Below, piece by piece: positions 50,503 to 61,023 of a stretch of 64,000 bases of DNA. Position 1 is the first letter of the stretch. Each line of letters starts with the position of its first letter. The notes under the pieces were generated by a model. It worked only from the letters and a program-made list of their open reading frames with translations. It was not told the DNA's origin and did no database searches. The position numbers and the translations under genes were made by a program. Source of the stretch: an uncultured Gemmatimonadales bacterium (GTDB taxonomy: Bacteria > Gemmatimonadota > Gemmatimonadetes > Gemmatimonadales > GWC2-71-9); assembly GCA_963842945.1 (NCBI GenBank), contig CAWJIM010000019.1, positions 96,001 through 160,000 on the forward strand, given 5' to 3'.

Positions 50503-51244
50503 ATGCCTTCCCTCACACGCCGGTTGACCGCCGAAGCGCTCGGCACCTTTGGATTGGTGTTCGTGGGCGCCGCGGTCGTGGTCGTCAATGGTGGGTTTCC
50601 CAACAGCGGTATCGGGCTGATCGGGATCGCACTGGCCCACGCGACAGTGCTCTCGGTGATGATCACGGCCACCATGACCATCTCCGGCGGCCACCTGAAT
50701 CCAGCCGTCACCATTGGCCTGCTGCTCAAACGCCGGATCGATCCGGTCTCCGCCTTGGCCTACATCGCGGTGCAGCTGGCCGCCGCCTGTCTGGCGGCGT
50801 TGCTGGTCAAGCTGCTCCTGCCGGTTCACGGCAGTGCGCAATGCCATGCTGGGAGTCCCGGTGATCGCCAGCTCGGTTTCGCTGGGCCAGGCAATCGGGA
50901 TCGAGCTGGTCCTGACGTTCTTCCTGATGTCGGCCGTGTTCGGAACGGCAGTGTCCCCGGATGCTCCCAGGGTGGCGGGGTTCGGTATCGGCCTGGTGCT
51001 GCTGTTCGACATTCTCGTCGGCGGGCCGCTGACCGGCGCGGCGATGAATCCGGCTCGAGCCTTCGGCCCTGCGGTTGTTTCAGGCGAGTGGGTAGGACAG
51101 CTGGTTTACTGGATTGGACCGATTGCAGGGGCGCTCTTGGCGGCAGTGCTCTGGGAGTTCCTGCTACTGCCGAAGGGTCCGAGTCGCCGGAGGAAGACGG
51201 ACGAGGAAACCGTAAGCGGGAACAGCGAGAAGCGTAAGCGGTGA
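50503..51244 (+). CDS. MIP-family channel (aquaporin); frameshift near 50830
   Basis: AEALGTF, ISGGHLNPAVT, AAMNPARAFGP, YWIGPI. Confidence 0.9.
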
Positions 51245-51819: not shown

Positions 51820-51915
51820 AAGGTAAAGCCGCACCCAGTACCCCCCCAAAATCACCGTGGTCACGATGTAGGCCGCGACCATATACCCGCCATTCTGGGG
51901 AGGCTCAGCCAACAT
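51781..51915 (-). CDS. ccmD: Heme exporter protein CcmD (44 aa, not in ORF track)
   Basis: MLAEPPQNGGYMVAAYIVTTVILGGYWVRLYLKQRKREDQLRER: YxxAAY, one TM segment and a basic tail, directly after ccmC. Confidence 0.75.
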   Translation of the reverse strand: MLAEPPQNGGYMVAAYIVTTVILGGYWVRLYLKQRKREDQLRER

Positions 51916-52612
51916 CCGAACCCCCTTCCAGCTCCCGCCTCTCATCCGCGAGAGCCAGCCCGTAACGCGCCGTCACGAATCCGACGTACAAGAGCGTAAA
52001 CACCAGAGTCGAGACCAGCAGCGTCCGTAGCATCTCGGGCGGCAGCGAGGGCGCACTTGGCTTCAGCACAATGGGCTGCGGGTGCAGCGTGCGAAACAGA
52101 TATACGCTGAGATGAATGAAAGGGATCAGCAGAAGGCCGAGGATTCCAACCACCGCGCTGAACCGCGCCCGCTCGGCCGGATCGTGCAGCGCGGCTCGGA
52201 GTGCCAGATAGCCCACGAACAGGAAGAACAGGAACAGGGTGAGCGTGAGCCGGGCATCCCAGGTCCACCAGGTGCCCCAGATCGGTTTGGCCCAAATAGG
52301 CCCGGTAGTGAGCATTACGGCGCTGAACGCTACGCCCACCTCGGCCGAGGCAGCGGCAAAGCGGTCAAGCCGGGGATCCTGCAGCCAGAGGTAGAGGGCA
52401 CCGGTCACGCCGACCAGCGAGAACGCCAGGAGCGCACTCCAGGCCGCAGGAACGTGGAGGTAGAAGATCTTCTGGGCCACGCCCTGACGGGCTTCGACCG
52501 GGGTGTAGCCCAGGGCGAGCACATAGACCAGGAGGAGCCCAAGGAAAGCGGCGCCACTGAGCCAAAGCCCGCGGCGAATGATTCGGTCGGCCTTAAGGTT
52601 TGCCGGGTCCAT
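51905..52612 (-). CDS. ccmC: Heme exporter protein CcmC
   Basis: KIFYLHVP, TGPIWAKPIWGTWWTWDARL (WWD motif), RTLHP. Confidence 0.93.
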   Translation of the reverse strand: MDPANLKADRIIRRGLWLSGAAFLGLLLVYVLALGYTPVEARQGVAQKIFYLHVPAAWSALLAFSLVGVTGALYLWLQDPRLDRFAAASAEVGVAFSAVMLTTGPIWAKPIWGTWWTWDARLTLTLFLFFLFVGYLALRAALHDPAERARFSAVVGILGLLLIPFIHLSVYLFRTLHPQPIVLKPSAPSLPPEMLRTLLVSTLVFTLLYVGFVTARYGLALADERRELEGGSDVG

Positions 52613-52617
52613 CGGGC

Positions 52618-53298
52618 TCACTCGTCCACCACCGCGGGGAAGGTCAGCGTGCAAAGTGTCACGAAGACGATGTCATAGAGCGCGAGAAGCCGAACCCACC
52701 CCAACATCTCGCTCCAGGGTCGTCCGGCCAGCAGCCGCGATGTGACCTGCACGGCTCCGATGAGCGGCGGCACCATGAAAGGCAGCAGCAGAACCGGCAA
52801 TAGCAGTTCGGCATGCCGGGTACGCACCGCCATAGCGCTGAAGATCGTTCCCACCGCCACGAATCCGATGGTGGCGAGTACCGTTGTGCCCAGGACGCCG
52901 GGCAGGCTCGACCACAGGCTCACATTAAAGAACAGAGTGAAGAGCGGGAGAGTCACCAGCTCCACTGCGCCGACGAAGGCCAGATTGGCCAGCAGCTTGC
53001 CCAGGAATAGCGCCTCTCGCGGCACCGGGGCCAGCAGCAGTCCATCTAACGCCGAGTTTTCCCGCTCGATAGTAAAGGCCCGGTTCATCGCCAGCAACGC
53101 AGCCAGCGCAAATGTCACCCATAAAACACTGGGCGCGAGCGCCGTGGCCGAAAGCGCGGTTGGATCCCGGGCGAAGTTGAAGACTACCAGGACCAGAGCG
53201 GCAAAAACCAGCGCGGAGAGGAGGGCGGTTCGGCTCCGGAGCTCCGCCCGTATGTCCTTCCCGGCCACCGCCAGAATCAGGTGCATCGATCTAAGCAC
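52618..53298 (-). CDS. ccmB: Heme exporter protein CcmB
   Basis: KD.RAELRS, ERENSALDGLLLAP, LLPVLLLPF.VP. Confidence 0.9.
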   Translation of the reverse strand: MLRSMHLILAVAGKDIRAELRSRTALLSALVFAALVLVVFNFARDPTALSATALAPSVLWVTFALAALLAMNRAFTIERENSALDGLLLAPVPREALFLGKLLANLAFVGAVELVTLPLFTLFFNVSLWSSLPGVLGTTVLATIGFVAVGTIFSAMAVRTRHAELLLPVLLLPFMVPPLIGAVQVTSRLLAGRPWSEMLGWVRLLALYDIVFVTLCTLTFPAVVDE

Positions 53299-54011
53299 CG
53301 GTCAGCATGCCGTAGCGGGAGAGGAACGCGTCGATCTCCCCACTTCGAGGCTCGTCTACCGCCCAGCGGCCTTCGATCAGCACCGCAACCCTCGAGGTCA
53401 GGTCCCACACATCGCCCAGCTGATGGGTCACGATGACCACCCCCGCACCCCGCTCCAGCCGGGATCGCAGATCCGACCGAAGCCGCTCCGCCGCCGGAGC
53501 ATCGAGCGCAGTAAAAGGCTCGTCCAGCAGGATAATGCTCGGGGCGTGTAACAAGGTGCGGGCGATCGCCGCTCGCTGGAGCAGACCCCGGCTCAGTCGC
53601 CGGGGCAGCTCCGACGCCCGGTTGCCGAGTCCGGCGGCGTCCAGCGCCGCATCGGCAACCTGACTGGGCTGATCGAGCGCATAGAGGCGGGCAGCAAAGG
53701 CAAGGTTTTCCCGCAGGGTGAGGTCGTCGTAGAGCAGCGACTGATGGGAGAGCAGACCAATCGCACCGCGAGCCCTGTCCGAGCCACGGCCCAAGCCGAT
53801 GGCCCAGAACCCGGATTTCCCCGGCGCTCGGGCGCAGGAGCCCGGCGAGAGATCTCAGAAGAGTTGTTTTGCCGGCGCCGTTGGGGCCAATGATGGCAAG
53901 CGCCTCGCCCGGCCTGAGGGAGAGGTCCAGGCCGCGCAGGACGCGGGCTTGGCCGAAGGAGCGCTGGAGCCCGCGAGCTTCGAGAAGCGGGACGCCGTCA
54001 TGAGACGGCAT
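53291..54011 (-). CDS. ccmA: Heme ABC exporter ATPase CcmA; frameshift near 53790
   Basis: GPNGAGKTT, HQSLLY.DLT..ENL, LSRGLLQR, LLDEPFTALD; directly upstream of ccmB. Confidence 0.88.
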
Positions 54012-54366
54012 CGATCCGCGCGCCGAGCTCGTCGAGGCGGAAGGGTTTGACGATGTAGCCGGAGTGGGGAAGATCGAGAACCTTGAGCTGGGGCTCAATA
54101 CTCATGTACGCGGTGGTGATGATGACCGGAAGATCCGGTTGAGTCAGCCGGATGCGGCGCAGAAGGTCCACCCCATCGGTGTCGGGAAGGCGCATGTCCA
54201 GGACCGCGACATCCGGCTTATGTTGCTCAAGCTGCTTCAATGCCTCGGCACCGGTTGAGGCGAACACCAGATCGTATCGAGGATTGAAGGCCCGCTCATA
54301 GCTCAATCGAAGCGCCGGCTCGTCCTCGACGATCAAGACGCGCCGGCGGCGTTTGCCCTTGGTCAT
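53998..54366 (-). CDS. Stand-alone response regulator receiver (CheY-like)
   Basis: VLIVEDE, LDMRLP..DG, TTA, KPF; 3' end overlaps the ccmA start. Confidence 0.9.
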   Translation of the reverse strand: MTKGKRRRRVLIVEDEPALRLSYERAFNPRYDLVFASTGAEALKQLEQHKPDVAVLDMRLPDTDGVDLLRRIRLTQPDLPVIITTAYMSIEPQLKVLDLPHSGYIVKPFRLDELGARIDAVS

Positions 54367-54452
54367 TCCGTACGCCCCTGGGGCCGGTGCTGGAGCACTG
54401 GGAGAGGAAGTTCAACTCGGGGGGTACTCTAATGGAAAACGGGGGCGATGGA

Positions 54453-54472
54453 AAGGCGGCTTGGGCCGCCTT
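54453..54472 (-). terminator. Hairpin after the STAS gene (possible weak terminator)
   Basis: AAGGCGGC-N4-GCCGCCTT; only a short U-tail on the minus strand. Confidence 0.45.
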
Positions 54473-54493
54473 CCCTATTGACTAACCGCTGAC

Positions 54494-54811
54494 TCATTGA
54501 CTAACCGCTGACTCGAGCTGAAAGAGATCGTCCAGCTTGGTGAGCATGAGAAGGAATCGAATCTCCTCGCTGGCGCCTCGGAGGGCCACGACCTGGCGCC
54601 GCTCGGCGGCCCGCCGCTGGATCAACATCAGGGCCCCGAGTCCGGCCGAATCCACGTGGCGGGTGCGCGCGAGATCGATGACCAGCCGACCGGCGCCCTC
54701 GGGCATCTCCTCCAAGAGTCGGATGGCCGTTTTCCGGATTTCCACCCGGGTATCGAGTCCGAGCGTCTCCGGTGCAGCCATGTCGCGCTCTGCGTCGTGC
54801 GGCGATCTCAT
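54494..54811 (-). CDS. STAS-domain anti-anti-sigma factor
   Basis: LVIDLARTRHVDSAGLGALM (phosphorylatable Ser motif), LTKLD.LF; GGAGGA RBS 4 nt upstream of ATG 54811. Confidence 0.88.
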   Translation of the reverse strand: MRSPHDAERDMAAPETLGLDTRVEIRKTAIRLLEEMPEGAGRLVIDLARTRHVDSAGLGALMLIQRRAAERRQVVALRGASEEIRFLLMLTKLDDLFQLESAVSQ

Positions 54812-54815
54812 TTGC

Positions 54816-54917
54816 TCCTCCTTCGGCACCGAGCTATCTCAACCAGGTCCAGCAGACCAGGTGAGACCTCTAGTTTTGCGGCCCCGAATCACTCCGGGTG
54901 TGCTCTTATCGGGCGGA
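54816..54917 (-). ncRNA. GEMM-I (c-di-GMP-I class) riboswitch, A20 variant; candidate 3',3'-cGAMP sensor
   Basis: Minus strand CGAUAAG-A-GCACA-CCCGGA-GUGA-UUCGGG-GCCGCAAA-ACUAGAGGUCUC...GAGAUAGCUCGGU-GCCGA: P2 capped by a GNRA loop, GCAAA junction, P3 with helical receptor, terminal GCCGA. Hand-aligned to known GEMM-I aptamers. Confidence 0.85.
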
Positions 54918-54961: not shown

Positions 54962-54978
54962 TGGCGAGACTGGTGCCA
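54962..54978 (-). promoter_or_regulatory. Possible sigma54 promoter upstream of the riboswitch
   Basis: TGGCACCAGTCTCGCCA: TGGCAC with exact GG-N10-GC spacing, about 45 nt upstream of the aptamer; -12 is TCGC instead of TTGC. Confidence 0.45.
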
Positions 54979-55154: not shown

Positions 55155-57095
55155 ATGAGCGATCAAATCGATACACTGCTCTCCGAACAACGTCGCTTCC
55201 CTCCTCCGCCCGGTTTCGCCGCGCGCGCCGCTGCAACCGAGGCACTCTATCAGGCGGGCCGCGACTGGAAAAAATTTTGGGAGCAGCAGGCGCGCGAGCT
55301 GGAGTGGATCGCGCCGTGGGATCGAGTGCTCGAGTGGGAGCTGCCTCACGCCCGCTGGTTCGTCGGTGGAAAACTCAATGCCTCGGCTAACTGTCTCGAC
55401 CGGCACCTGGATGGTCCACGCCGGAACAAGGCGGCCATCATCTGGGAGGGTGAGCCGGGCGAGCGCCGCGTCCTTACCTACTGGGACCTTGCCCGGGAGG
55501 TTCGCCGCTGCGCCAATGCCCTCAAGAATCTCGGTATCCGCCGAGGCGACCGGGTGGCGATCTACCTGCCGATGATCCCCGAGGCCGTTGTGGCAATGCT
55601 GGCCTGCGCCCGGATCGGCGCGGTGCATTCAGTGGTATTCGGAGGGTTCTCCGCCGAGTCCCTGCGAGACCGAATCAATGACGCGCAAGCCGTTGCACTG
55701 ATCACGTCGGACGGTGGGTATCGCCGGGGGCAGGTGCTACCGCTCAAGCGGTTTGCCGATGACGCGCTGGCCCAGTGCCCTTCGATCAGGCATTGCATCG
55801 TGGTCCGTAGAGTAGGCGAGGAATCGGCAGCGGTGATGCGGGAGGGGCGGGATCACTGGTGGCACGAACTCATTCAAGGCGCCTCGCTCCGGAATGAGCC
55901 CGAAGCAATGGACGCGGAAGATCTGCTCTTCATCCTGTACACCTCGGGCACCACCGGGAAGCCCAAGGGCATCGTGCACACCACCGGCGGCTATCTCACC
56001 CATGTCGCCACTACCACACGCTACGTGTTCGACCTGCGGGAAGACGATGTGTTCTGGTGTACCGCCGACATCGGATGGGTTACCGGCCACAGCTACGTGG
56101 TGTACGGGCCACTGGCCAACGGCGCCACGGTGGTGATGTACGAGGGCGCGCCCGACTGGCCGGAGCGGGACCGGTTCTGGGGCATCGTGGAGACCTATGG
56201 CGTCACCATCCTCTATACCGCGCCCACGGCTATCCGCGCCTTCATGAAGTGGGGTCCCCAGCATCCCAGTCGTCACGACCTCGGCACTCTGCGGCTGCTG
56301 GGCACCGTCGGCGAGCCCATCAATCCCGAAGCGTGGATCTGGTATCACCAGCAGATTGGTGGCGCACGCTGCCCCATCGTCGACACCTGGTGGCAAACCG
56401 AGACCGGTGGGATCATGATCACTCCGCTCCCCGGCGTCACCACCACCAAGCCGGGTTCCGCCACTATACCGTTTCCCGGGGTAACTGCGGAGCTGGTAGA
56501 CACTGAGGGCAAGCCGCTCGAGCAGGGCGGCGGATTTCTGACCATAAGCCAGCCCTGGCCCGGCATGCTCCGCACCATTTACGGCGACGACCAGCGCTAC
56601 CGCGACACCTACTGGAGCCGCTTCCCCGGCCGCTACTTCGCCGGCGACGGCGCCAAGCTGGATGAGGAGGGTTACTGGTGGATTCTGGGCCGGGTGGACG
56701 ATGTCCTCAATGTCGCGGGACATCGCATCGGGACCATGGAGGTGGAGAGCGCGCTGGTGGACCACCCCGCCGTGGCCGAAGCGGCGGTGGTGGGCCGTGC
56801 CCACGACCTGAAGGGTCAGGCGCTCGCGGCCTTTGTCACTCTGAAGGATGGGAAGCAGGCGAGCCCCAGCCTCAAGGATGATCTCAAGGAGCACGTTGTG
56901 AAGAAGATCGGCGCCATCGCCCGGCCCGATGATATTCTCTTCTCTGCCGATCTGCCCAAGACCCGGAGCGGAAAGATCATGCGTCGCCTGCTGAAGGACA
57001 TCGCGGAAGGACGCACTCTGGGCGACACCACGACGCTGGCCGATCCCAACGTGGTGAACCGGTTGAAGGAGATGTACGAGGAAAAGGAGGGGTAG
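55155..57095 (+). CDS. acs: Acetyl-CoA synthetase
   Basis: [46 protein letters not shown]. Confidence 0.96.
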
Positions 57096-57150
57096 GAGGG
57101 AGAAGACCGGGAAGACGGGAAAGACGGGAAGGTATGAAGGAGAGGAGGAA
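57093..57150 (+). repeat. Single arm of the GGGAAAGAC 9-mer repeat
   Basis: GGGAAGAC GGGAAAGAC GGGAAGGTATGAAGG, nearly identical to GGGAAAGACGGGAGGGTATGAGG at 11629-11651; starts at the acs stop. Confidence 0.65.
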
Positions 57151-57159
57151 AGGCACCTC

Positions 57160-59079
57160 CTAAATCTGCACCTGCGCTCCCAGCTCGACTACGCGATTCG
57201 GCGGCAGGTTGAAGAATGCCGTGGCCGACTGGGCGTTGCGGGCCATCAGGATGAAGAGCTTTTTGCGCCAGCGGGACAGCCGGGAGTTGCCGGTGGGCAG
57301 TAACGTCTCCCGTCCGAGAAAAAAGCTGGTCTCCATGGGTTTGGCTTCCAGCCCTCGAGCGCCAAGGGTGCTCAGCAGAGCCGGGAACGTCGGGTGACTC
57401 CATGAAGCCGTATCGGCCGGTCACCAGGTAAAACCCGCTGCCCAGATCCTTGACCTCGGCTCGGTCATCCGGCCTGACCTGAGGAATTTCTTCTCCCGAA
57501 ATCGACATGATGATCACCTTCTCATGCAGCACCTTGTTGTGCTTGAGATGGTGCAGCAGGACCACTGGCGTTCCGCCGGGGTCAGACGTCATGAACACCG
57601 CCGTTCCCGGCACCCGGGGCGGCTGGCGGCGGGTGATATCCTCGAGAAAGAGCGGCAGCGGCAGCGCATTGTCGTGCAGGATCCCGGTGACCGTTTCACG
57701 CCCCCGCTTCCAGGTGGTCATCAACAGATAGACCACGCCTGCCACCAGGAGCGGGAACCAGCCACCCTTCGCGATCTTCACCAGGTTTGCCGCCAGGAAA
57801 GACAGGTCCACCACCAGGAACACCGCCCCGAGCGTGGCGACCCGGGCCACACTCCAGTTCCATCGCTGGCGGGCCACGGCGCAGAACAGCAGCGTGGTGA
57901 TCGTCATCGTACCGGTAACGGCGATGCCGTAGGCCGAGGCCAGAGCGCCGGAGCTCCGGAATCCCAGCACGAGGAGCACGCAGAGCAGCCCCAGGGTTCG
58001 ATTGAGCCCGGGGAGGTAGATCTGGCCGATCTCGGTCTGTGAGGTGTGTTGGATCGTCACCCGCGGGCTGTATCCCAGCTGTACCGCCTGCCGGGTCAGG
58101 GAGAAAGCTCCGGAAATCAGCGCTTGGGAGGCCACAACCGCCGCGGTGGTGGCAATGAGCACCATGGGATACAACGCCCAGGACGGGACCAGGCCATAGA
58201 AAGGATTCTGCGCGGTGGCCGGCCGAACCAACAGAACGGCCCCCTGGCCGAAGTAATTGAGCGCCAGCGCCGGCAACACCACGGCTGAACCAGGCCAGAC
58301 GGATGGGACGTTTGCCGAAGTGGCCCATATCGGCATAGAGGGCCTCGGCCCCGGTCACCACCAGGATAACCGCACCGAGGACCAGGAGACCCTGACGCCC
58401 GTTGCGGAACATGAAATCGAGCGCGTGCAGCGGATTCAAGGCGCGCAACACCTCCGGATGCTGCACGATTCCCGCGACACCGAGTGCGGCGATGGTCCCG
58501 AACCAGACCAGCATCACTCGGCCGAATACGGCACCGATGCGGGCTGTCCCTCGTTTCTGGAACAGAAATAATCCAAACAGAATGATCGCGGCGATCACCG
58601 GGGTGATTGGATTCAGCGCCGGGGTGGCAACCCCGATACCCTCCACCGCGCCCAGCACCGAGATCGCCGGAGTAATCACACCGTCGCCATAGAGCAGTGC
58701 CGCCCCGAATAGTCCCAGGGAAACCAGCCAGCGCCGGGAGCCCGTCCGGTCCTGACGGGGATGCAACAGCGCGAGCAGCGCCATGATCCCCCCTTCGCCG
58801 CGGTTGTGGGCTCGCATGATGAAGACGAGATACTTGAACGACACGACGAAGTTGAGCGACCAGAAGATGAGCGACAGAATGCCCAGCACGTTGGCCGGCG
58901 TGGGGGCGATGCCGTACTCGGGCGCGAAACACTCCTTGAGAGCGTAGAGCGGACTGGTGCCGATGTCGCCGTAGACCACCCCGAGCGCTCCCAGGGAGAG
59001 CGCGAGCAGTGCCCGCCTATTTCGTCGCGGGGCCGGACGGGCTAGAGCTGGGGGGAGACGGACTGGTGACCGCGGTCAC
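57160..59079 (-). CDS. kup: KUP/HAK/KT potassium transporter (downstream copy); frameshifts near 59020, 58290 and 57390
   Basis: [69 protein letters not shown]. Confidence 0.92.
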
Positions 59080-59081
59080 GA

Positions 59082-61023
59082 CTAGAACTGAATCTGGGCG
59101 CCGAGCTCGACCACCCGGTTCGGCGGAAGCCCGAAGTACGCAGTGGCCGACTGGGCGTTGCGGGCCATCAGAATGAAGAGCTTCTTGCGCACGCGCCCCA
59201 TCCGGCGGCCCTCGAGCGGTTTCTCGCCCCGGGGTTTCTTCTTGCCTGCCGCCATGGCGATCAGGGTTTCCCGCCCGAGATAAAATGTGGTATTGGCCAG
59301 CTTGACGTTGACGGATTTGCCGTCGTCTTCCGCCCGTCCCAGAGCCCGGAGCACATCCGGCACGTCCGGCGTTTCCATGAATCCGTAACGGGCCATAACC
59401 TGGTAGAACCCTTCGCCGAGCTCGGCGCATTTGACCCGGTCTTTTTCTGCGACCTGCGGGATCTCCTCAGTGTGCACCGACATGAGCATGACCTTCTCGT
59501 GGAGCACCTTGTTGTGCTTGAGATGGTGCAGCAGCACTGGCGGCGCACCACCGGTCCCTGAGGTCATGAACACCGCCGTCCCGGGCACCCGATAAGGCTG
59601 GCGGCGGCGGATATCATCGAGAAAGAGATCCATCGGGAGCGTGTTCTCCTGCACGATGCCCGTGAGCCGCACCCGTCCCTTCTTCCACGTGGACATCAGC
59701 AGATACACCAGCGCCGCCACCACCAGCGGCAGCCAGCCTCCATTGGGAACCTTGAGCATGTTGGCGCCCACGAACGCCAGATCCACCACCAGAAACAGCA
59801 GGGTGATCGGACCCGCCTTCCACCAGCTCCAGCCCCACAGCCGCCGCATGACGATGGAAAAGAGAATCGTGGTGATGGTCATCGTCCCGGAGAGGGCCAC
59901 GCCATAGGTGAGCGCCAGAGCGCTGGCATTTTGGAACGCCACCACCAGCCCCAGGCAGGAGACCATCAGTATGGTATTCACCGTGGGGATGTAGATCTGT
60001 CCGATGGTGCTGCTCGAAGTATGGATGATCTTCATCCGCGGACTATAGCCCAGCTGAATGGCCTGGCGGGTCAGCGAGAACGCGCCCGAGATGAGCGCCT
60101 GGGAAGCCACCACGGCAGCGGCCGTGGCGATACCCACCATGGGGTACAACGCCCAGCTCCGGCACCAGCGCGTAAAAGGGGTTCCGGGCCGCACCCGGAT
60201 CATTCAGCAGCAGCGCGCCCTTGGCCGAAGTAGTTGAGAACCAGCGAGGGCAGCACCAGCGCGAACCAGGCCAAACGTATCGGGCGGCGGCCGAAGTGCC
60301 CCATGTCCGCGTACAGCGCTTCACCTCCGGTGACGACCAGAATGACGGCCGCAAGCACCGTTATGCCGGTGAGGCCCTCGCGAGCGAAGAAATCCACGGC
60401 GTAGCGGGGATCGAGTGCCCGCAGCACGCCGGGCTCGCGGCTGATTCCCATCACGCCAAGAATGGCGATGCAGATGAACCAGATCCCGGTGATGGGCCCG
60501 AAGACCGCCCCGACCCCTGCTGTTCCGCGCCGTTGCAGGGCGAACAGCGCCAGGATGATCACGAAAAGAAATGGGAACGACCCAGTGCTCGAGCGCCGGG
60601 GTGGCCACGCTGAGTCCCTCCACGGCGCTCAACACGGAGATGGCCGGGGTGATGATCCCGTCTCCATAGAGCAGCGCTGACCCGAAGAGTCCGGTCGCGA
60701 TCAGCAGCCGCGCCTCTGGTAGTGATTCGCCCACTGGGCCGAACCAGCGCCAGCAGGGCAAGGATACCGCCCTCTCCCCGGTTGTCCGCCCGCATCACCA
60801 TGGAGAGGTACTTGAACGTGACCACGAAGTTCAGCGACCAGAAGATGAGCGACAGGATGCCCAGCACGTTGCTGGTGGTTACCGGAAAGCTGTGGGGGCC
60901 GAAGAAGCACTCCTTGAAGGCATAGAGCGGACTGGTTCCGATGTCGCCATAGACCACGCCCAGCGCGCCAAAAGCCAGAAGCGCGAGCTGCTTGCCGGAT
61001 TGAGATTTGGCCTTGCGGGACAA
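59082..61023 (-). CDS. kup: KUP/HAK/KT potassium transporter (upstream copy); frameshifts near 60720, 60565 and 60160-60215
   Basis: Same KUP motif set; ends [14 protein letters not shown]. Confidence 0.92.

Follow-up and report, generated by a model that had tools for sequence, protein, structure and literature searches.

Background

The closest described relatives of the RNA element reported here are the GEMM-I (c-di-GMP-I) aptamers, whose c-di-GMP-selective subclass, exemplified by Vc2, reads the Hoogsteen edge of a guanine through G20, and whose GEMM-Ib subclass, represented in Geobacter by Gs1761, Gm0970 and pilM, has A at that position. Vc2 provides the precedent for a translational OFF switch (PMC13725321), whereas pilM and Gs1761 are transcriptional ON switches. 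A natural A20 also occurs outside the Deltaproteobacteria, in the bispecific Cbe 1-2 aptamer of Clostridium beijerinckii, which prefers c-di-GMP (30 nM, against 463 nM for cGAMP; PMC6140456). In the same report the Vc2 G20A mutant bound c-di-GMP at 53 nM and cGAMP at 120 nM, Gs1761 with a stabilised P1 was only about threefold selective, binding of guanine through a protonated A20 was described as general, and C92 was said to call for guanine at the beta site; that report leaves open what beyond A20 sets selectivity.

Non-immune signalling by 3',3'-cGAMP has, in the portions of the literature consulted, been characterised in Geobacter, Myxococcus and Bdellovibrio, and the Hypr class of cyclases is defined there by Ser or Thr at position 348 (in addition to the sources cited individually: PMC8835794, PMC10333796, PMC5888326, 10.64898/2026.01.30.702909, PMC9262584 and PMC7266159). 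Arg was found in 94% of predicted diguanylate cyclases, and acquisition of a GGDEF motif, followed by R304Y and D348S, was proposed as the route to Hypr enzymes (PMC6456294). Among HD-GYP phosphodiesterases, 4.69% carry an Rxx(Q/N) motif, and five of six such enzymes that were assayed degraded cGAMP, three of them selectively (bioRxiv 600031). Our literature search found nothing on cGAMP or A20 aptamers in Gemmatimonadota among the matches listed, and published supplements may list such cases.

Results and Discussion

A GEMM-I aptamer with A at position 20

The window (the whole 64-kb stretch of DNA analysed, to which all positions without a contig prefix refer) was searched with cmscan and gave RF01051, the c-di-GMP-I model, as its sole gathering-level match. 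This match lies on the minus strand from 54914 to 54822, scores 43.1 bits (E 4.3e-5; cut-off 35) and covers model positions 1-87 of 87, so that the GEMM-I aptamer which a sequence-only reading of this DNA had placed here passes a covariance-model check at full length. The folding energy of the region is unremarkable (z -0.3 to -1.3) and plain folding does not single the aptamer out; the evidence for it is therefore the covariance model together with the conservation described below. On these grounds the element is confirmed as a genuine RNA switch that belongs to the c-di-GMP class and has been conserved, and it is a new lineage variant of that known class. Coordinates of the features are collected in Table 1.

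Table 1. Features of the STAS locus in the window
Feature	Positions	Strand	Basis or remarks
Sigma54-type -24/-12 box (GG 54977-76, GC 54965-64)	54964..54978	-	predicted start ~54952
Leader hairpin directly 5' of P1	54921..54945	-	folds at -14.3 kcal/mol, z -1.2
UCCGCC, 5' strand of P1 extension	54912..54917	-	pairing in STAS loci
GEMM-I / c-di-GMP-I aptamer (RF01051)	54822..54914	-	covariance model and near-invariance in 30/30 same-genus loci
A20, specificity position (G20 in Vc2, A14 in Gs1761)	54904	-	sequence reading and RF01051 alignment
Shine-Dalgarno GGAGGA, 3' strand of P1 extension	54816..54821	-	sequence reading
Stand-alone STAS protein, 105 aa, DS55AGLG phospho-acceptor motif	54494..54811	-	PF13466, PF01740
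Strong hairpin 3' of STAS stop, without immediate U-run	54450..54475	-	71-nt region, -27.6 kcal/mol, z -4.75
Single-domain response-regulator receiver	53998..54366	-	PF00072, 90.1 bits
ccmA (frameshifted in assembly), ccmB, ccmC	51905..54011	-	ABC_tran, CcmB, Cytochrom_C_asm, ORF list

In what we take to be the Vc2 numbering of this aptamer, G14 falls at 54910, A20 at 54904, A47 at 54877 and C92 at 54826, and the junction pairs G21-C46 (54903/54878) and C22-G45 (54902/54879) are intact. P2 is formed by 54898-54893 with 54888-54883 and closed by the GNRA loop GUGA, just as the earlier reading wrote it. P3 pairs ACU-A-GAG-GUCUC with GAGAU-AG-CUC-GGU, and it also contains a 20-nt hairpin insert that the earlier reading had omitted. 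The P2 GNRA loop, the P3 receptor bulge, A47 and C92 that characterise the GEMM-I pocket are thus all present; the roles of the pocket positions are those described in PMC6140456. At 54904 the base is A, as had been claimed, in place of the G20 of the c-di-GMP-selective subclass and in agreement with GEMM-Ib, and it is A in all 29 of the same-genus STAS loci that could be read at this position.

With Vc2 the aptamer shares the full model match, A47, C92, both junction pairs and the GNRA loop on P2. It differs in its natural A20 and in having C24/C43 and A50 instead of A/A and G, and the locus differs in that the 3' strand of P1 is the Shine-Dalgarno sequence itself, the promoter is of the sigma54 type and the target is a STAS gene. 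The likeness to the Geobacter GEMM-Ib systems extends to the coexistence of G20 aptamers, cytochrome c maturation genes downstream, further A20 copies in front of surface or lipoprotein-like genes, and a GGDEF protein with Tyr304 and a GGDEF motif in the genome. The phylum is a different one, the cyclase here has Asn rather than Ser at 348, and the switch is predicted to be translational and OFF where those of pilM and Gs1761 are transcriptional and ON.

Promoter, STAS gene and downstream genes

A sigma54-type box, scored against what we take to be the -24/-12 consensus and absent from the earlier reading, lies upstream of the aptamer. Where the upstream DNA was long enough to judge, 74 of 75 STAS-linked pattern loci have such a box; so do 60 of 71 STAS loci from other genera, aptamer-bearing or not, and the chance rate is 0.011 per 110 nt. 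The other eleven aptamer matches of the window's genome lack one, the RpoN-box motif occurs once in that genome, and a scan for sigma70 promoters and terminators gave nothing relevant on the minus strand. We infer that the sigma54-type promoter is used. Lying between this box and the Shine-Dalgarno sequence and ATG, in a conserved arrangement, the aptamer occupies the position of a 5' UTR element. Directly 5' of P1, the leader hairpin has counterparts of similar form and different sequence in same-genus loci, as judged by eye.

The STAS target named in the earlier reading was borne out: the open reading frame from the ATG at 54811 matches PF13466 at 41 bits (cut-off 29.2) and PF01740 at 30.8 bits (cut-off 22.6). 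Its product aligns to TM1442 (E 7e-6) and has an orthologue in 85 of 96 family genomes. A 19-nt tandem direct repeat runs across the STAS stop codon (54477-54514), just before the strong hairpin. At 29 of the 30 loci of the genus a receiver gene stands beside the STAS gene, with 81-100% identity. In the window it is followed directly by the ccm genes, the start of ccmA overlapping the receiver stop. Frameshifted reading was seen in the window at 53277-54098, 56816-61023 and 50503-51244 and also at C2:357815-358741; the frameshifts in ccmA, two Kup-like transporters, an aquaporin-like gene (Kup and aquaporin labels assigned by eye) and an HD-GYP gene are probably long-read assembly errors.

A search of RNA runs gave small shares only (0.07-0.17). 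Relatives' contigs in four runs touch the aptamer, the STAS gene and the receiver separately, with none spanning them, and since these contigs show no strand, start or level they were not used as evidence.

Conservation and distribution of the A20 aptamer

The near-invariant aptamer is present at each of the 30 STAS loci of the genus, a set to which the window's own locus belongs. When other-genus loci were picked by STAS orthology alone, 15 of 60 had the aptamer, with A20 in all 15; selection by the A20 pattern added 11 other-genus loci, including the sister-family genomes G037 and G211, in which P2 is different. Reversion to G20 at the STAS locus was seen in none of the 44 orthology-picked loci. 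Across 69 distinct A20 cores whose arms had not been fixed by the search, P2 is paired in 414 of 414 cells.

A search of GTDB contigs gave at least 118 loci with the aptamer-type pattern. A STAS gene follows at 77 of them and a different gene, in many cases lipoprotein-like by eye, at 23; the other 18 were too short to assign. Among the matches listed, 78 of 80 pattern loci are titled Gemmatimonadota or Gemmatimonadales, which makes Gemmatimonadales the most likely order of the window's own bacterium, and homologues of its cyclase bear the same names. The same A20-STAS arrangement, with a STAS protein 65% identical, is present on a contig titled Bacillota (L124), which is possibly misbinned. 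A strict A20 pattern, applied to a draw of 201 genomes from the phylum, matched 47 of the 96 that belong to the own family and 4 of 104 from elsewhere. Looser patterns for A20 and for G20 matched 68 and 82 of the 201 but were dropped in its favour because controls showed that they include chance matches. Related genomes within these sets do not count as independent, and certain loci appear in more than one set; the tallies include genomes flagged unpublished (G003, G106, G143, G198 and G221), and no conclusion rests on one of these alone.

The window's genome has ten aptamers over the cut-off, three with A20 and seven with G20, on different genes. Five homologous target groups (19 loci compared) each kept a single state at position 20, and apparent A/G toggling at orthologous loci was rejected, the look-alike P2 cases preceding unrelated genes. 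The two further A20 aptamers of the genome (C18:139957-140040 and C21:370829-370911) have near-identical leaders and stand before paralogous lipoprotein-like genes, homologues of which in G141 and G236 are also behind A20. Two GEMM-I-like matches fell below the cut-off: C21:118877-118992 (28.3 bits), with a degenerate pocket, and C18:66010-66106 (23.4 bits), with A20 on a G20-type scaffold. Elsewhere, A20 aptamers at L493 (G172), L494 (G112) and L137, two of them on a different scaffold, precede homologous proteins that have a pilin-like N-terminus by eye and only a below-cut-off match to DUF7266.

Expression platform

Of the six pairs that had been proposed between the P1 extension UCCGCC (54917-54912) and the Shine-Dalgarno sequence GGAGGA (54821-54816), five are complementary and the other is a G.A mismatch (54914/54819), which the earlier reading passed over. 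Five or six of the six pairs form in 68 of 76 STAS loci, compensatory changes included. Three P1 bases are changed in six of the 76 (the TTCTCT variant), which still pair the Shine-Dalgarno sequence fully and which probably represent one event. When the bound fold was imposed on transcripts of three lengths, the cost of opening the region from the Shine-Dalgarno sequence to the AUG went from 1.3-3.0 to 4.1-5.2 kcal/mol, a rise of 2.0-3.9 kcal/mol, and the unpaired probability of the five pairing Shine-Dalgarno bases fell to 0.01-0.16. The Shine-Dalgarno sequence is already partly paired in the free-state fold.

Since the 3' strand of P1 is the Shine-Dalgarno sequence in the window's genus, ligand binding there would lower translation of the STAS gene, and the conserved P1 helix and the raised opening cost point to translational OFF as the best reading, by analogy with Vc2. 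The OFF claim of the earlier reading is supported to that extent, but it is genus-specific. The Shine-Dalgarno sequence is fused to P1 in 36 of the 77 STAS-linked pattern loci and separate in 41, mostly 50-90 nt downstream, as in the other genera. In 35 of 40 separate-site loci the spacer contains a complement to five or six of the six bases of the P1 5' strand, a count that carries no chance control, and folding of the other-genus platforms suggested mixed polarity, with three loci gaining Shine-Dalgarno access in the bound model. Such anti-P1 sequence abuts the Shine-Dalgarno sequence in STAS loci outside the genus (for example L222-L227, L204 and L395), where it is conserved, and it changes together with the P1 5' strand in G211; this arrangement may represent an ON platform from which the fused OFF form descended.

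These other-genus platforms would also suit a switch that binds its ligand with a net effect other than translational OFF, either because the P1 extension is constitutive or because an ancestral platform, with its anti-P1 sequence and alternative hairpins and possibly ON, was lost and control became weak. The mean unpaired probability of the Shine-Dalgarno sequence, which changes little in many loci (from 0.55 to 0.41 here), is in keeping with such an outcome. The energy required to open the site once the bound fold is imposed, the retention of the fused form in 36 loci and the preservation of pairing by the TTCTCT variant argue the other way, and we hold this alternative to be improbable.

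A candidate cyclase and phosphodiesterase

The genome was searched for Hypr-type GGDEF proteins, as the sequence-only reading had suggested. Neither the window's genome (87% complete) nor two relatives that are 98-99% complete have a GGDEF domain with Ser or Thr at 348. Among the 13 GGDEF matches of the window's genome is, however, a protein with 4Fe-4S, Fe-hydrogenase-like and FeS domains (C19:20169-21866; L016 in G000) that has Asn where canonical enzymes have Asp, Tyr at 304, a GGDEF motif and an intact RxxD site, and that has two orthologues with Ser348. Aligned to the Idiomarina structure 5LLX, its Tyr falls on Arg537 and its Asn on Asp581 (with a chain offset of 2 inferred from the numbering); GacA (6D9M) has Tyr and Ser at the same two positions. 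The Asn of LxNRR is missing, and Thr or Ser replaces the Asn before position 304. The protein thus resembles the Hypr cyclases GacA, Bd0367 and GSU1937 in its GGDE[F/Y]-type motif, its non-Arg residue at 304, its RxxD site and its non-Asp residue at 348. It departs from them in having Asn instead of Ser or Thr at GacA position 348, GHExGN rather than GHL(I/V/A/F)GS, the Thr/Ser before 304, and an iron-sulfur input with no receiver.

Of the family genomes, 87 of 96 encode this Fe-S GGDEF protein, against 4 of 104 from outside the family. Position 348 is Asn in 61 of 63 orthologues, Ser in two (G117 and G108) and Asp in none, in a set of which 43, the window's own included, came from a pattern that excludes Asp. 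Less biased are the 20 orthologues picked by orthology, all with Asn, and 116 full-length homologues chosen solely by their Fe-S region, of which 115 have Asn348. The GGDEF motif is kept in 63 of 63 orthologues and in 116 of 116 homologues, and position 304 is Tyr or Phe in all 63 orthologues (59 by script, four by eye); not one of 47 further GGDEF domains, taken from seven genomes, has Tyr there. In a quick tree the two Ser348 forms are sisters nested among the Asn forms. Our literature search found no test of Asn348. The 2016 paper that defined the Hypr enzymes reportedly surveyed Asn and Thr variants, the outcome of which bears on the claim made here for Asn348.

Gemmatimonadota do have conventional Hypr candidates, namely the two Ser348 orthologues (L290 and L291) and a GAF-like GGDEF protein (L292, in G208) that carries GHLVGS and matches GacA best among PDB entries. 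The Fe-S GGDEF gene lies downstream of a sigma54-type response regulator (C19:22104-23621), which is a candidate activator of the STAS promoter, and downstream of the cyclase gene is one for a 248-aa protein without Pfam match that adjoins it in 40 of 41 loci. Two other cGAMP sources were considered and rejected: a GHIGGDDF protein (C1:119874-120887) considered as a GSU1937-like synthase carries Asp at the signature position, both in this genome and in relatives. Against a CD-NTase stands the rarity of the SMODS domain (PF18144), which has no match in the window's own genome and is present in 2 of 101 genomes of the family.

Seven HD-GYP matches were found in the window's genome, one of which has an RxxQ motif (RVYQ; C16:149648-151114, L198) that aligns to RPYK of PmGH at the R314/K317 positions. 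The HD, HH and D metal ligands are present, as is the Rxx(Q/N) of PmxA-type phosphodiesterases, from which the protein differs in its N-terminal domain and in an order-wide spread irrespective of A20. The gene is embedded in a trp cluster. Most family genomes carry two RxxQ paralogues; a second one in the window's genome was rejected, since the C2 HD-GYP is frameshifted and the following frame reads RPYR. The genome also encodes several canonical GGDEF, GGDEF-EAL and RxxR HD-GYP proteins.

Co-occurrence and the ligand

Within the family the A20 aptamer and the Fe-S GGDEF are not associated, the cyclase being present in 40 of the 47 genomes that show the A20 pattern and in 47 of the 49 that do not. 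Four same-genus genomes with an intact switch (94-99% complete, in 140-190 contigs) gave no match to the cyclase or its neighbour, which may reflect loss or assembly gaps. In the A20 carriers outside the family (G037, G211, G045 and G151), none of the intact domains read among 40 GGDEF matches has Asn, Ser or Thr at 348. In one of these genomes the gene for an Asp-type membrane GGDEF has an A20 aptamer immediately in front of it (L453; G045 C3:2425105), an arrangement that suggests feedback on c-di-GMP synthesis. An RxY[Q/K/N/H] pattern, most of the 150 matches listed reading Q, occurs in 149 of 200 genomes and in 30 of 38 of sister family f2, more widely than A20 or the cyclase, and the Fe-S GGDEF occurs in 0 of 38 genomes of f2. 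Given these distributions, the coincidence of the three cGAMP-type signatures amounts to one family-level event.

The earlier reading had cautioned that A20 alone does not prove selectivity, and the published affinities agree, Vc2 G20A and Cbe 1-2 both binding c-di-GMP more tightly than cGAMP. A20 is permissive and does not fix selectivity, and the window aptamer, which has a natural A20 in common with Cbe 1-2, keeps the Vc2-type G21-C46 and C22-G45 pairs and has a long P1. Which dinucleotide is sensed cannot be told from sequence. The possible cGAMP input proposed in that reading has become more plausible than A20 by itself would make it, through the presence in the same genome of the Asn348/Tyr304/GGDEF cyclase and the RxxQ HD-GYP; it is unproven, and the co-occurrence tests were negative. 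We put the chance that cGAMP is a physiological input at about even.

The negative tests are in keeping with the element being a translational OFF switch for c-di-GMP, in which protonation of A20 at N1 lowers the affinity or tunes it to pH and so sets a threshold different from that of the G20 aptamers, the Asn cyclase makes c-di-GMP or is degenerate, and the RxxQ motif is a trait of the lineage. The generality of binding through protonated A and the preference of Cbe 1-2 fit such a switch, as do the four A20 genomes with only Asp-type cyclases, one of them with the aptamer in front of such an enzyme, the canonical c-di-GMP proteins of the window's genome, and the SMODS counts. It requires, however, that three separate cGAMP-type signatures should have come together in one family by coincidence, and it sits uneasily with the true Ser/Tyr/GGDEF Hypr set of two full-length orthologues and with the constancy of A at the orthology-picked STAS loci. 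As a complete account it is a serious contender whose probability we place somewhat below even, and the same holds for c-di-GMP as the only ligand.

Any ligand situation other than these two is unlikely. A pocket that responds to a third dinucleotide, for instance c-di-AMP or some novel compound made by the Asn cyclase, would draw on the promiscuity of Hypr enzymes, which make all three dinucleotides in vitro, and on the lack of a tested precedent for Asn348 in the literature found, but the intact C92 (54826) calls for guanine at the beta site, and we consider this explanation very improbable.

The STAS protein and a sigma cascade

A partner-switching sigma cascade downstream of the switch, as the sequence-only reading envisaged, found no support. 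With SpoIIAA/RsbV and SypA-type proteins the window STAS shares a single STAS domain and a DSAGLG serine, as expected of an anti-anti-sigma factor. It scores 29.7 against the TIGR00377 cut-off of 53.45, whereas a paralogue on C18 passes at 66.4 and sits with the genome's only clear RsbW-like kinase and only full-length SpoIIE phosphatase. The window STAS is an orphan, with no kinase, phosphatase or sigma factor adjacent and, unlike SpoIIAA/RsbV, is followed by receiver and ccm genes. By eye, the five sigma70-r3 matches, the class of sigma factor covered in this 87% complete genome, comprise four of RpoD type and one of FliA type, with no sigmaB/F-like factor among them. Many single-domain STAS proteins are not anti-anti-sigma factors (PMC10120452). 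A sigma cascade is therefore possible but unsupported.

Implications

The explanation that we consider best overall, and to which we give roughly an even chance, would run as follows. A sigma54-type promoter would drive an mRNA with the A20 GEMM-I aptamer as its 5' leader; binding of a 3',3'-cyclic dinucleotide would lock the three-way junction and P1 and, in the window's genus, turn STAS translation down. A physiological input would be cGAMP, probably with residual c-di-GMP binding, its likely source the family-wide Fe-S GGDEF and its likely eraser the RxxQ HD-GYP, both as judged from sequence signatures, and c-di-GMP would be the signal for the G20 aptamers that the genome also has. The genome has one RsbW-like kinase and one full-length SpoIIE phosphatase, and the STAS protein would most likely be their phospho-regulated partner. 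Observation covers the anatomy, the conservation and the signatures of the enzymes; the use of the promoter, the polarity, the ligand and the activities of the enzymes are predictions.

It is tempting to speculate further, though we regard this as tentative and rather doubtful, that Gemmatimonadales possess a complete, independently evolved 3',3'-cGAMP pathway separate from c-di-GMP. Such a pathway would combine a new Asn348/Tyr304 Hypr subtype fed by a 4Fe-4S/hydrogenase-like redox sensor, RxxQ phosphodiesterases and an A20 riboswitch class peculiar to the lineage on sigma54-driven STAS-receiver-ccm genes and on surface proteins, and in the window's genus loss of the downstream platform would have fused P1 to the Shine-Dalgarno sequence, maybe converting ON to OFF.

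If c-di-GMP is the true ligand, the A20 aptamers of the family would form a clean natural collection of c-di-GMP readers, informative on what beyond A20 sets selectivity. If instead the cGAMP explanation is true, the cGAMP pathway would extend to another phylum and gain an Fe-S sensory input, and the definition of Hypr would come to include Asn348, an Asn codon being a single base change away from a codon for Asp and from one for Ser.
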